Part shown: positions 5,538 through 47,313 of the stretch, piece by piece
Layout of the letters: each line of letters opens with the position of its first letter
Numbering within the stretch: the first letter of the stretch is position 1
Sequence record: NC_014792.1
Reading direction: 5' to 3' (one strand)
DNA length: 64,000 bases
DNA from: Escherichia phage vB_EcoM_VR7
Translations under genes and position numbers: made by a program
Notes under the pieces: model-generated
The model's database searches: none
The model's input: the letters and a program-made list of their open reading frames with translations, nothing else
What the model was told of the DNA's origin: nothing

Positions 5538-5562
5538 AAGCAAAAAGGCCCGAAGGCCTTAT
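5538..5562 (-). terminator. UUCG-tetraloop hairpin
   Basis: aaggcc-cgaa-ggcctt, followed by a T-run on the minus strand. Confidence 0.55.
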
Positions 5563-5819
5563 TCAAATCGAATGGTTGAATTCTTGAACAACAATCCAGA
5601 ACAAACAGTTCCTTTGACCTGTTTACCGGTCGGACCCACTGCTGTAAAACCAGTACGTTGGAAGTCATCTTCAGAACACCCAAACAAACTATACCCAGTG
5701 ATTTGGATTTGCTCATAGCCGCTTGCATCCAATACACGAACAGCATTATCTGCATCAGTACAACCAGCCAATGAAACTGCCAAAAATAGCGCGGCAATAG
5801 AACGATTAATATATTTCAT
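5559..5819 (-). CDS. putative lipoprotein
   Basis: 86 aa; signal peptide with lipobox LAGC. Confidence 0.55.
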   Translation of the reverse strand: MKYINRSIAALFLAVSLAGCTDADNAVRVLDASGYEQIQITGYSLFGCSEDDFQRTGFTAVGPTGKQVKGTVCSGLLFKNSTIRFE

Positions 5820-19232: not shown

Positions 19233-19526
19233 TTATTCACCTGTAACTTCTTTGACGATGTTTTCATTTTCAAAGTTAGGGTCACAATACAACACGTAAT
19301 TATACTGCATAACCCCACCAGATGCCAACTGGTCAGATACTTCTTTGACCTTGTTTAGTTGGTCACGTTTAGTGATGTTCATGATGTCCGCGTAAATCTG
19401 GTGTTCAACTGCTTCCTGGTCAGCGGTCATTGACCACTCACAAAGGTCTTTATCATAACCAGCGGTAACTGGAGCTGCGTGACATGAAGCGAGGACTAAG
19501 ATTGCTGCGATAGATAACTTTTTCAT
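19233..19526 (-). CDS. sp: spackle periplasmic protein
   Basis: 97 aa; signal peptide; GYDKDLCEWSMTADQ and GGVMQYNYVLYCD recalled from T4 Sp. Confidence 0.7.
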   Translation of the reverse strand: MKKLSIAAILVLASCHAAPVTAGYDKDLCEWSMTADQEAVEHQIYADIMNITKRDQLNKVKEVSDQLASGGVMQYNYVLYCDPNFENENIVKEVTGE

Positions 19527-21128: not shown

Positions 21129-21157
21129 ATTATGCCCTAGTAGAATTCAGTTGTACA
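21129..21157 (-). promoter_or_regulatory. early promoter cassette (GATTCCATACTGAGTTAC class)
   Basis: TGTACA-N17-CATAAT-GATTCCATACTGAGTTAC. Confidence 0.55.
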
Positions 21158-21164
21158 CCCCTTT

Positions 21165-21195
21165 TTAAAATAAAAAAGGACCCGAAGGTCCTTGT
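21165..21195 (-). terminator. UUCG-tetraloop terminator downstream of gp41
   Basis: aggacc-cgaa-ggtcct with A/T runs. Confidence 0.6.
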
Positions 21196-24372: not shown

Positions 24373-24876
24373 TTAGTTAATACCTTGACGAGCTTTCTCT
24401 TTAGCTACACATTTATTAATATAGCTCAGACGGTTTTGAGCAGAACGCTGATACATATCGCGATACTCATTAGCCTTAGGAGAACCCGTCTCTGCTGCCT
24501 GATAAGCTTCCGCACGCATGATGTTTATCTGCATATTGATGTATGACATGCAGACCTGTGAAATCTGGTTAACAGTATCCAGGTCATTTTGTCGCTTGGT
24601 TTCTGCTTCCAGTTTGGCAATGATTTCGTCATGCTTCGCAGCTTGTTCGCGTTTGTACTCAATTTCACGTTGAGCATATTTTGCGCAATTGTTTCCACAT
24701 TGATTATTGGCGCGTTTGTAGATAAGTCCAGTGCCACCTTTGAAATCAAAGGAACCATTATGCACCTGACGGTCTGCAGCAATTCGCGCTTTACCAATCT
24801 CACTGGCATTAACTACATCACCCTGGTAAGCACAACCAGATAGCAGCATAACAGCTGCGATAGCTAACTTTTTCAT
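24373..24876 (-). CDS. putative lipoprotein
   Basis: start moved to MKKLAIAAVMLLSGC (lipobox); occupies the beta-gt/42 slot. Confidence 0.5.
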   Translation of the reverse strand: MKKLAIAAVMLLSGCAYQGDVVNASEIGKARIAADRQVHNGSFDFKGGTGLIYKRANNQCGNNCAKYAQREIEYKREQAAKHDEIIAKLEAETKRQNDLDTVNQISQVCMSYINMQINIMRAEAYQAAETGSPKANEYRDMYQRSAQNRLSYINKCVAKEKARQGIN

Positions 24877-44907: not shown

Positions 44908-45736
44908 TAACGTTCATTAGTTTTTGACGTTCAGCTTTTGCTGCACTGTTCAGTCCTGACAGGCGGAAAATTTCATCATCTTGTTGCTGGATGGTGATGT
45001 TAAGTTCTTCAATCTGTTTAGTGAAAAGCTCAATTTGCTCTGAATATTTTTCATTGCTTCGCACTGGAACAGGTTCCATTTTAGGAGCTTGTTCTGAAGG
45101 ACTCTCAACTACAACTCGGTCTTTAATTTGGCATAATTTAATACGCTGGACGCCTCCAGTTTTAACATCATAGAAGGTAAGAACCCCATGATGTTCGAGT
45201 TCAGACAATGCCAAACGGAGGTGGAATTTCCAGTTTTCGTATTGACATCCGCTAAAAGAAGAAATACTGTATTCGCCTTCATTTTGACCTTTAATAACAT
45301 TAAATAGTTTGTAATCTAAAGAATTATTGGTTTTAAAGGTCATTTGTTTATCTTGACCGCTTGCTAAACGAGCACCAAGAGCTAATAAACGTCGTTGGTT
45401 AGTATGAAGGTCTTTGACCACTTCATCAAATGTCATGGTGCTAATCGCACGACCATAAAGGTCATAACCTTTATTATAATTTTTAAGTAAAATTTTGGCA
45501 TTAGCACGAGACAACATACCCGAACGTTGAAGAGATTTCATGACTCGGTCTTCTAATGTAAGCAAGCCCGTTGTTTTATTAAAGATTTTAGTGAATTCAG
45601 CAGAATTAGTACAAACATTGAACTTATTCCACATCATATATAAAACATTTAAAACCACATCTTTAGTGCTCGGAATACTGTTAAATTTAACAACTTTTTT
45701 AACTTCAGAACGAATTTCATTAATTGCTTGTGACAT
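44888..45736 (-). CDS. hypothetical protein, C-terminal coiled coil
   Basis: 282 aa. Confidence 0.5.
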   Translation of the reverse strand: MSQAINEIRSEVKKVVKFNSIPSTKDVVLNVLYMMWNKFNVCTNSAEFTKIFNKTTGLLTLEDRVMKSLQRSGMLSRANAKILLKNYNKGYDLYGRAISTMTFDEVVKDLHTNQRRLLALGARLASGQDKQMTFKTNNSLDYKLFNVIKGQNEGEYSISSFSGCQYENWKFHLRLALSELEHHGVLTFYDVKTGGVQRIKLCQIKDRVVVESPSEQAPKMEPVPVRSNEKYSEQIELFTKQIEELNITIQQQDDEIFRLSGLNSAAKAERQKLMNVIELLKD

Positions 45737-45754
45737 ATTATTTTCCTCAATAGA

Positions 45755-45790
45755 TTAATCAAAGGTCAGAACCATTATACCATCCTTGGT
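45755..45790 (-). promoter_or_regulatory. candidate middle-type promoter
   Basis: AACGCTTTATACCAAGGATGGTATAAT, near-identical to the element upstream of gp55. Confidence 0.35.
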
Positions 45791-45799
45791 ATAAAGCGT

Positions 45800-46324
45800 T
45801 TATGCGAGAACCGTCTTTAAACGCTCTTCAAACTTCTGAAGGAGTACCTGGCGCTCTGCTCTTTGTTTGGTATAGGTTTCAATACGCTCTGAAGTGAGAT
45901 TGTATTGTTCATTAACTGATTCCCGCATGAATTCAGGAATCTCTTTACATGCTTTGATTTCATTGAACTTATCAAGCACTGCTTGATGTTCAGCAATCAG
46001 ACCATCATAATATTGGATATCTGATTTGATGTTCTGTACATCAGATTCAGTTGGCATATTTTTCTTTACTCTTGCCGCTTGATACTCAGCATTAGTCTCT
46101 CTTGACCAGAACAAAGAGCGGTTTTTGTTAGTGTTTTTATACACATCAATAATACCAACTGAATCAACATTCACAATCCAGTTCCAGGCGTTTTTATAAG
46201 TTTGACCACCTGATACTGTAATCTCACCTGCACAAGCAACATCATTAAAGAACTTGCTTTGTGCTTCTGATTTAAAATTACCATTATTGTAATTAATCAG
46301 ATTAAAGATTGATTTGGCTTCCAT
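45800..46324 (-). CDS. hypothetical protein
   Basis: 174 aa. Confidence 0.5.
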   Translation of the reverse strand: MEAKSIFNLINYNNGNFKSEAQSKFFNDVACAGEITVSGGQTYKNAWNWIVNVDSVGIIDVYKNTNKNRSLFWSRETNAEYQAARVKKNMPTESDVQNIKSDIQYYDGLIAEHQAVLDKFNEIKACKEIPEFMRESVNEQYNLTSERIETYTKQRAERQVLLQKFEERLKTVLA

Positions 46325-46358
46325 TTTATTCTCCAGTTTGGTAACTCAGTATGGGAAC

Positions 46359-46387
46359 ATTATACGTCTATCCCATACTGATGTACA
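46359..46387 (-). promoter_or_regulatory. early promoter cassette
   Basis: TGTACA-N17-TATAAT-GTTCCCATACTGAGTTACC. Confidence 0.55.
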
Positions 46388-46390
46388 CAT

Positions 46391-46693
46391 TTAATTAAAA
46401 GTTCTTTCAGTATTTTCACCACTGAACCAGGCGCTCTTAACGGCTTGCTGTGCGCGATGAATCTGTTCAGCCATATAAACACCAAGGGCCTCTGCTTTTC
46501 TTGTCCTGTGGGCTTCTGCGGCGACCATTTGCAGCTTATCCATCATGATAAGAGCTTTACATTTCTCCTTCAGAGCATAACGTTTCTTCTCTTCTGGAGT
46601 TTTGACCATTCCTCTTAACTTGTGCATTTTCAACTTAAAATGGTCAGCAGATTTCAGACATGCATCAATCATGTCAATTTCATACTTTTTCAT
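46391..46693 (-). CDS. hypothetical basic protein
   Basis: 100 aa. Confidence 0.45.
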   Translation of the reverse strand: MKKYEIDMIDACLKSADHFKLKMHKLRGMVKTPEEKKRYALKEKCKALIMMDKLQMVAAEAHRTRKAEALGVYMAEQIHRAQQAVKSAWFSGENTERTFN

Positions 46694-46699
46694 AATTCC

Positions 46700-46906
46700 T
46701 CACTTGCGACGGCGTTTTGGTAATGGTTTAGGGAAGAACATTGCTTTACCTGCAGGGGTCAAAGTCACACGCAAAGCATTACCAATACCAAGGGATGCTT
46801 TAACCAGACCTTTGGCTTTTAACTCACCAAATGCTTGACGTTGTTCAGGGTCACGAGTGTTAACCATCAGACCTTTTTCACCAGCAGCTTTGATTAATTC
46901 TAACAT
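46700..46906 (-). CDS. hypothetical protein
   Basis: start moved to MLELIKAAG after conserved leader and GGAGAATAAAATG RBS. Confidence 0.45.
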   Translation of the reverse strand: MLELIKAAGEKGLMVNTRDPEQRQAFGELKAKGLVKASLGIGNALRVTLTPAGKAMFFPKPLPKRRRK

Positions 46907-46945
46907 TTTATTCTCCAGTTTTATTTGGTAACTCAGTATGGAATC

Positions 46946-46974
46946 ATTATGCCTCATGACCATCTGGTTGTACA
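46946..46974 (-). promoter_or_regulatory. early promoter cassette
   Basis: TGTACA-N17-CATAAT-GATTCCATACTGAGTTACC. Confidence 0.55.
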
Positions 46975-46984
46975 CTACTTTTTA

Positions 46985-47015
46985 AAATAAAAAAGGACCC
47001 CGAAGGGTCCTTTGT
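46985..47015 (-). terminator. UUCG-tetraloop terminator
   Basis: ggaccc-cgaa-gggtcc flanked by A/T runs. Confidence 0.6.
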
Positions 47016-47016
47016 A

Positions 47017-47313
47017 TTATTTCTTACAACCAACATATTTTGGCATATGACAGAAAACAGAATCGGTAACTACTCGACCCTTTGCCCATGCTTCCTGTGC
47101 TTTACCGTGAGTAGTATTCACATAGCTGGATTTAATATTCTCAATACCTTGAGAATGTGATGCGTGTGCAGAACCATTAGAAGGACCTGCTGACTGACTT
47201 GAACTTTGACCGCCGGTGGAACCACCAGGGCCTGATGTGCCTTCAGTAGCCAGTACACCAAAAGACATAACAGCGGCCAACAGGCCTATAGCCACTTTTA
47301 ATTTTAATTTCAT
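47017..47313 (-). CDS. secreted Gly/Ser-rich protein
   Basis: 98 aa; signal peptide, low-complexity GPGGSTGGQSSSQSAGPS, two C-terminal Cys. Confidence 0.5.
   Translation of the reverse strand: MKLKLKVAIGLLAAVMSFGVLATEGTSGPGGSTGGQSSSQSAGPSNGSAHASHSQGIENIKSSYVNTTHGKAQEAWAKGRVVTDSVFCHMPKYVGCKK

Follow-up and report, generated by a model that had tools for sequence, protein, structure and literature searches.

A small, probably periplasmic orphan protein at a variable site in the T4-like coliphage vB_EcoM_VR7

The window analysed here is a 64,000-nucleotide stretch of the genome of Escherichia phage vB_EcoM_VR7 (record NC_014792.1), and the locus of interest is a single open reading frame on its minus strand. 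The frame had been predicted, from the letters of the sequence, to encode a secreted low-complexity protein rich in glycine and serine, and it is present exactly where that prediction put it (Table 1). Its 98-codon product (MKLKLKVAIGLLAAVMSFGVLATEGTSGPGGSTGGQSSSQSAGPSNGSAHASHSQGIENIKSSYVNTTHGKAQEAWAKGRVVTDSVFCHMPKYVGCKK) is 100% identical to the NCBI entry 'hypothetical protein VR7_gp099 [Escherichia phage vB_EcoM_VR7]'. The profile phrog_2243 matches gp099 with E=3.3e-36, residues 4-98 aligning to profile positions 2-86 of 87. Over the 2.6 kb around the gene, the sequence is 97.5% identical to that of phage VR25 (Gaprivervirus, Tevenvirinae), and by sequence the source phage VR7 is itself a T4-like coliphage of the genus Gaprivervirus.

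gp099 belongs to the non-essential nrdC-tk region, where it falls between the counterparts of T4 nrdC.11, an RlaP-type nucleotidyltransferase according to Pfam, and nrdC.9. Its upstream neighbour, gp100, overlaps the 3' end of nrdC.11; it accompanies gp099 in Gaprivervirus and not in Mosigvirus, and it is also present, without annotation, in phage 212 (L004:2195-2437). Elsewhere in the window, in the mobD region, an 85-residue open reading frame at 49917-50174 (minus strand) contains a DksA/TraR C4 zinc finger (PF01258, E=4.9e-9).

Table 1. Features of gp099 and its flanks, in window coordinates
Feature	Position	Strand	Basis or remark
Whole ORF gp099	47017..47313	-	ATG start, 98 aa + stop; ORF list
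Predicted signal peptide, residues 1-22: MKLKLK / VAIGLLAAVMSFG / VLA	47248..47313	-	rule-based check
Gly/Ser/Gln/Thr-rich spacer, residues 23-43	47185..47247	-	composition, indels
Conserved C-terminal module, residues 44-98	47020..47184	-	alignments, dN/dS
Cys88...Cys96 loop	47026..47052	-	C-x7-C in VR7, C-x8-C in Mosigvirus type
Shine-Dalgarno AAGGTG, 5 nt before ATG	47319..47324	-	sequence
T4-type middle promoter match TGCTTCA-12 bp-TATAGT	47351..47375	-	pattern search
Predicted intrinsic terminator of gp099: AAAGGACCC-UUCG-GGGUCCUUU + T-run	46982..47013	-	terminator scan
Predicted early-type sigma-70 promoter TGTACA-17-CATAAT	46946..46974	-	promoter scan
gp100, upstream neighbour	47377-47601	-	DUF7279, phrog_8921
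gp098, next gene downstream	46700-46906		

The original prediction had a terminator and an early promoter preceding the gene. Both elements exist, but they lie 3' of gp099 because the gene is on the minus strand. The regulatory context had been read in the wrong orientation, and the real upstream elements are the Shine-Dalgarno sequence AAGGTG, which is kept in VR25 and reads AAGGTA in phage 212, and a match to a MotA-type middle promoter. In T4 middle promoters, 12 +/- 1 bp separate the -10 element from an upstream MotA box with the consensus (a/t)(a/t)(a/t)TGCTT(t/c)A (PMC2988021). Requiring TAnnnT as the -10 element, we found nine matches to this pattern in the window where 1.86 were expected, an enrichment of approximately 5-fold over shuffled sequence; none of 100 shuffles reached nine, and the minus strand has six of the nine. 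The match directly upstream of gp099 has its MotA box at 47375..47369 and its -10 element at 47356..47351. It is kept in VR25 and in phage 212, where the -10 element is TATAAT, and it matches what is expected of a MotA/AsiA-type middle promoter, which we consider it putatively to be. The nine sites span positions 5518-61408 and are candidate middle promoters of VR7.

Copies of the small gene in Mosigvirus have no MotA box, so the timing of expression may differ between genera. In one Mosigvirus phage, APCEc01 (L002:2455-2462), nrdC.11 ends in codons that read TATAAATA, the T4 late-promoter consensus, and the ATG of the small gene follows 33 nt downstream.

On the other flank, the stem-loop of the predicted terminator (47013..46992) begins 3 nt past the gp099 stop codon, and the early promoter is followed by GGAGAATAAAATG, the start region of gp098. 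Judged by their placement, the predicted terminator ends the gp099 transcript and the early promoter drives gp098. This cassette, together with the GGAGAATAAAATG start region, is conserved in an alignment with VR20, VR25, RZ, APCEc01 and T4. As an alternative, we considered an RNA element at this locus: an Rfam scan of positions 45500-49000 gave only sub-gathering matches (27.7 and 30.5 bits, where the cut-offs are 50 and 54), and these coincide with the terminator hairpin at 46992-47013.

A stem-loop coupled to an early promoter is known from the hyperplastic regions of T4-type phages as the PeSL (promoter-early stem-loop) element (PMC2839356, Arbiol et al. 2010). The VR7 cassette has the corresponding parts: a stem-loop and a sigma-70-like early promoter in an intergenic position beside an ORFan, and then a Shine-Dalgarno sequence and an ATG. 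Using a loose version of the composite motif (a hairpin with a UUCG loop, a T-run and a GTnTACA -35 element), we found three copies in the window, at 21152-21187, 46969-47005 and 51045-51079, all on the minus strand, with none expected from shuffled sequence. By this motif, the three copies are PeSL-like terminator/early-promoter cassettes dispersed along the early-transcribed strand.

The position between nrdC.11 and the cassette differs among close relatives. In VR20 and T4 the cassette directly follows nrdC.11 and gp099 is absent; the VR20 locus is otherwise collinear with that of VR7. In VR7, VR25, phage 212 and ESCO10, gp100 and gp099 stand between nrdC.11 and the cassette. The RZ-type Gaprivervirus genomes have in the same slot an unrelated open reading frame of 248 residues on the opposite strand. 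In Mosigvirus, in phage F2 and in metagenomic contigs, the small gene again has nrdC.11 on one side and the cassette, here located ahead of nrdC.10, on the other; the distance from nrdC.11 to the small gene is approximately 30 nt in Mosigvirus and F2 and approximately 260 nt in the metagenomic contigs. Only four or five of the 29 Gaprivervirus-type records that match this stretch contain gp099. Because the gene is absent from the collinear VR20 and is replaced by other cargo in RZ, we regard gp099 as dispensable. Read from these comparisons, it is cargo at a recombination-prone site, and the slot, which may be empty, hold gp099 or hold a different gene, is a clear case in nature of cargo being exchanged at a PeSL-like cassette.

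The alternative occupant in RZ (L007:1527-2273, equivalent to 47017-47600 in VR7) contains an Sf6-type tail-needle-knob domain (PF16532, E=2.6e-32) and, in addition, a weak collagen-like stretch. A tail-needle-knob domain is unexpected in the early region of a T4-like phage.

The slot resembles the PeSL-and-ORFan cassettes described previously (PMC2839356) in that an orphan frame in a hyperplastic region sits beside a stem-loop and early promoter, the element is repeated in VR7, and the slot is present, absent or replaced between close relatives. It differs in that gp099 has a PeSL on its downstream flank only; the upstream flank is the MotA-box middle promoter match in Gaprivervirus and the end of nrdC.11 in Mosigvirus. 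In the PeSL model, recombination between two PeSLs mobilises the frame that they flank, by way of mini-circles. The pattern of presence, absence and replacement would fit this model, although the upstream flank is no PeSL.

The family to which gp099 belongs is small. A tblastn search found the gene in 101 phage records, once in each, and all of these are T-even phages of Escherichia or Shigella; the records that we fetched with a copy belong to Gaprivervirus, Mosigvirus and, in one case (F2), Tequatrovirus. Searching 1.84 billion representative sequences exhaustively with the conserved 55 residues using phmmer returned a single protein, the Mosigvirus form, so that the family corresponds to one 50%-identity cluster, and a word-indexed search of 5.8 billion proteins returned five close relatives. 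Pfam gave nothing significant for gp099 (a low-complexity match to AFF4_CHD, E=0.008, was below the cut-off), NCBIfam and PADLOC gave zero matches, and the PDB sequences yielded only noise (E=2.3). VR7 gp099 is not discussed in the literature that we searched. On the searches, then, gp099 is a member of a tiny orphan family, and phrog_2243 is itself of unknown function. It already has an annotation, as a hypothetical protein, and its features are ordinary, with no sign of an unusual mechanism.

The copy in F2 (L003, 2372-2653) has a conserved module identical at the protein level to that of the Mosigvirus phage APCEc01, with a dS of 0.09 there, and its neighbours are annotated as JS09- and APCEc01-like. 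This copy suggests that the gp099 region has been exchanged between genera.

Given such a distribution, gp099 might be an ORFan in decay or without function that travels with a mobile PeSL cassette; it is absent from most Gaprivervirus genomes, the slot swaps its cargo and the family is tiny. The pattern of substitution largely refutes this. Specifically, all indels among five homologues aligned as DNA are multiples of three, and a comparison of VR7 with phage 212 shows eight synonymous and no non-synonymous substitutions in the conserved module, while dN/dS of the module between genera is 0.18-0.25. The reading frame is intact in every copy examined (the five aligned as DNA and sets of eight and six protein sequences), and the start codon, the Shine-Dalgarno sequence and both cysteines are kept. 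Because the indels preserve the frame, the substitutions divide eight to zero and dN/dS is low, the frame is coding rather than a chance occurrence. In other words, the alignments indicate that the module is under purifying selection and that gp099 is a genuine gene, and we consider it very unlikely that gp099 is functionless cargo.

The protein begins with what was predicted to be a signal peptide, and the sequence supports that claim: the first 22 residues have the n-, h- and c-region layout of the Sec type (MKLKLK, then VAIGLLAAVMSFG, then VLA followed by TEG). Our check was purely rule-based and asked for a positively charged n-region, a hydrophobic h-region of 10-15 residues and small neutral residues at -3 and -1. 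We found three lysines in the n-region, a hydrophobic core of 13 residues with Kyte-Doolittle values up to 2.8, and a predicted signal-peptidase-I cut between VLA and TEG, after Ala22, as expected of a substrate of Sec and signal peptidase I. The valine at -3, the alanine at -1 and the threonine that follows are invariant in a protein alignment of eight sequences (A1); a second alignment (A2) includes one metagenomic variant with serine at -1. The remainder of the signal peptide differs between subfamilies (MKLKLKVAIGLLAAVMSFGVLA versus MKKLVIGLFAVMMAFSVGA). No lipobox of the form L-[AS]-[GA]-C, which would direct the protein to signal peptidase II, was found, the first cysteine of gp099 being residue 88, and its sequence has no twin-arginine motif.

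The protein had also been called secreted. The Sec signal is consistent with the first step of this; release beyond the outer membrane is not supported, no outer-membrane secretion signal having been identified in gp099, and periplasmic is the better term. With export and cleavage both read from the sequence, gp099 is probably sent to the bacterial periplasm. That it is a real and exported small protein is, on this evidence, the part of our interpretation of which we are most confident, and we consider it very probable.

The early region of VR7 encodes several other small proteins for which the rule-based scan found envelope-targeting signals. It flagged four further small frames for export, at 5559-5819, 24373-24876, 53539-53898 and 53899-54441, all on the minus strand. 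The first two contain lipoboxes (SLAGC and LSGC), two of the four have Sec-type signal peptides, and none of the four has a match in Pfam.

The N-terminal segment might instead remain uncleaved as a signal anchor or signal-anchor-release (SAR) domain, as the similar-looking N-terminus of T4 RI does. In that case the module would be anchored through the spacer on the outer side of the inner membrane, and gp099 would act as the regulator of a membrane protein, for instance the holin or a complex for injection or transport. Several features are consistent with such a tethered form: the h-region VAIGLLAAVMSFGVLA has glycine, alanine or serine at 7 of its 16 residues, a composition typical of SAR domains; the spacer varies in length, as a tether may; and gp099 is the same size as RI (97-98 residues). 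However, the textbook V-x-A site at -3/-1 is invariant in alignment A1 and the residue after it is acidic or neutral, gp099 is not homologous to RI, and VR7 is expected by synteny to have an rI gene of its own. We therefore consider the tethered form unlikely, though less so than any other alternative weighed here, and continue with cleavage and release into the periplasm as the preferred reading.

The predicted mature protein (residues 23-98) has 76 residues, a mass of 7.7 kDa and a pI of 9.1. It starts with the spacer, and the glycine- and serine-rich linker quoted in the original prediction matches residues 28-48 exactly (GPGGSTGGQSSSQSAGPSNGS); within residues 23-48, 16 of the 26 residues are glycine or serine. 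Homologues differ in the spacer by in-frame indels of 3-15 nt, and for one query range the tblastn matches span 252-282 nt, which corresponds to at least seven length classes. AlphaFold2 assigns a pLDDT below 50 across the spacer. From its composition and indels, the spacer is probably flexible.

What follows the spacer had been described as a short C-terminal region with two cysteines. The cysteines are there, exactly C88 and C96, and this region is the part of gp099 that matters: approximately 55 residues (44-98) are nearly invariant while the spacer varies. The motif of this module is PSNGS..ASHSQGIENIKSSY(V/I)N(T/S)T.G.A.EAW.KGR(V/I)VT.SVFC.MP.YV(G/AK)C.K., or in a shorter notation PSNGS..ASHSQGIENIKSSY.N.T.G.A.EAW.KGRVVT.SVFC.MP.YV..C.K., and most of its columns are invariant across the Gaprivervirus, Mosigvirus and F2-type copies in both alignments. 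The description of gp099 as a disordered adaptor is not supported: selection acts on the conserved 55-residue module and not on the linker, and the bridging of two partners is unsupported.

C88 and C96 are the sole cysteines of gp099 and are invariant in both alignments; a disulfide between them in the periplasm is presumed. Substitutions in the module cluster round this loop, at positions 84, 89, 92 and 97. Positions 84 and 89 swap charge, being D and H in VR7, R and D in Mosigvirus, and H and D in the family member P0004, which hints that the two residues are in contact with each other. An amphipathicity scan found no clear amphipathic helix and a modest signal of strand periodicity at approximately residues 70-78. 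Structure prediction was of little help: AlphaFold2 gave a pLDDT of 50.1 with a six-sequence alignment and of 56.9 for the conserved module alone, the latter as an implausible single long helix, and at pLDDT values of 50-57 these models are unusable.

The layout of the mature part brings to mind a microcin- or bacteriocin-like membrane-active peptide that would attack the inner membrane from its periplasmic side, causing damage or depolarisation. Like the class IIa microcins (colicin V, or MccV), gp099 would be a small exported peptide with a glycine-rich N-terminal part and a C-terminal disulfide loop, here Cys-x7-Cys, and the mature peptide is basic. The resemblance is one of layout. There is no sequence similarity (BLASTP against colicin V gave E=17), gp099 has a Sec leader and not the double-glycine leader, and it belongs to the lytic cycle of a phage. 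A hydrophobic segment is lacking from mature residues 23-98, the neighbouring genes are those of the nrdC region and include neither an exporter nor an immunity gene, and the phage itself would suffer from damage to the membrane at an early stage of infection. We find this explanation highly implausible.

A second possibility concerns the strand-like part of the module that reads KGR(V/I)VT.SVF, which could act as a periplasmic decoy for the energy-transducing Tol or Ton system by mimicking the TolA box of TolB (EVRIVIDSGV) or a TonB box. The mature N-terminus of TolB from E. coli K-12, EVRIVIDSGVDS, shares R-[IV]-V-x-D-S with residues 80-85 of gp099, and one family member (P0006) has RIV at this point. 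In the TolA box, the hydrophobic residues are those important for binding (PMC7066135). The match nevertheless amounts to only four or five residues and is without statistical weight; D84 is replaced by R or H in other members; and the TolB motif is at a free, disordered N-terminus, whereas that of gp099 is internal and beside the disulfide loop. A decoy of this kind seems to us every bit as implausible as a microcin. The broader idea, that gp099 is a new type of periplasmic effector that plugs a trans-envelope machine of the host, for example through TolA-box or TonB-box mimicry, has only a very slim chance of being right. If it were true, the effector could be defined by the invariant polar PSNGS..ASHSQGIENIKSSY segment and by KGR(V/I)VT.SVF beside the disulfide loop, and it would block rival phages and colicins during infection.

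The reading that we prefer is that gp099 is a dispensable periplasmic accessory factor, directed at the envelope and made before replication. The gene would be transcribed before replication from the MotA/AsiA-type middle promoter, with read-through from nrdC.11 likely, and transcription would stop at the strong hairpin 3 nt past the stop codon. The 98-residue precursor would be exported by Sec and cut after VLA22, leaving a basic protein of approximately 7.7 kDa made up of a flexible Gly/Ser spacer and the conserved module of approximately 55 residues, with its C-terminal loop closed by a disulfide made by DsbA. The module would then bind a target in the envelope or periplasm, which could belong to the host or to an incoming phage. 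Its role would be to protect or remodel the envelope of the infected cell, for example in superinfection exclusion, protection from lysis from without, or lysis timing. Taken as a whole, we consider this account slightly more likely than not. Its functional part, an accessory function at the envelope, is drawn by analogy with the T4 proteins Spackle, Imm and RI, and on that point alone we judge the chances to be even. More simply, gp099 is probably an ordinary, dispensable, periplasmic ORFan from the hyperplastic part of a T4-like genome. Only some coliphages, themselves candidates for therapy, carry it, and knowledge of its target could help to explain why phages that are otherwise nearly identical differ in superinfection exclusion, in lysis timing or in competition with each other.

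Among known systems, the closest in layout is Spackle (Sp, gene 61.3) of T4, an early protein of the periplasm that acts in superinfection exclusion and inhibits the gp5 lysozyme (PMC7677548). Both are products of early or, putatively for gp099, pre-replicative genes of T-even phages, of nearly equal length (97 residues for Sp and 98 for gp099), with a Sec-type signal peptide and two cysteines in the mature part; both are non-essential, and Spackle acts in the periplasm, where gp099 probably goes. Unlike gp099, Sp has no Gly/Ser spacer, its genomic location is different, and the two sequences are unrelated. We compared them directly using hhalign, which gave a probability of 0.4% (E=0.16), and homology was rejected. 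The Sp ortholog of VR7 is a separate gene, at 19233-19526 on the minus strand, and is 69% identical to T4 Sp.

Imm and RI of T4 are further envelope-related analogues. RI, like gp099, is a small protein (97 residues) encoded in the nrdC-tk region, with a hydrophobic segment for export at its N-terminus and a small C-terminal domain that lies in the periplasm and contains two cysteines. It differs in that gp099 keeps a canonical cleavage site, and there is no sequence relationship; hhalign gave a probability of 0.1%, and RI was likewise rejected as a homologue. By synteny with VR25, VR7 should carry its own rI. Because VR7 carries Sp, and RI is expected as well, a redundant role in exclusion or lysis inhibition is not required of gp099. 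As judged from these comparisons, gp099 shares with Spackle and RI no more than the layout and is a homologue of neither. If it does act in the periplasm, gp099 would represent one more family of envelope-directed accessory proteins of the T-even phages, alongside Sp, Imm and RI.
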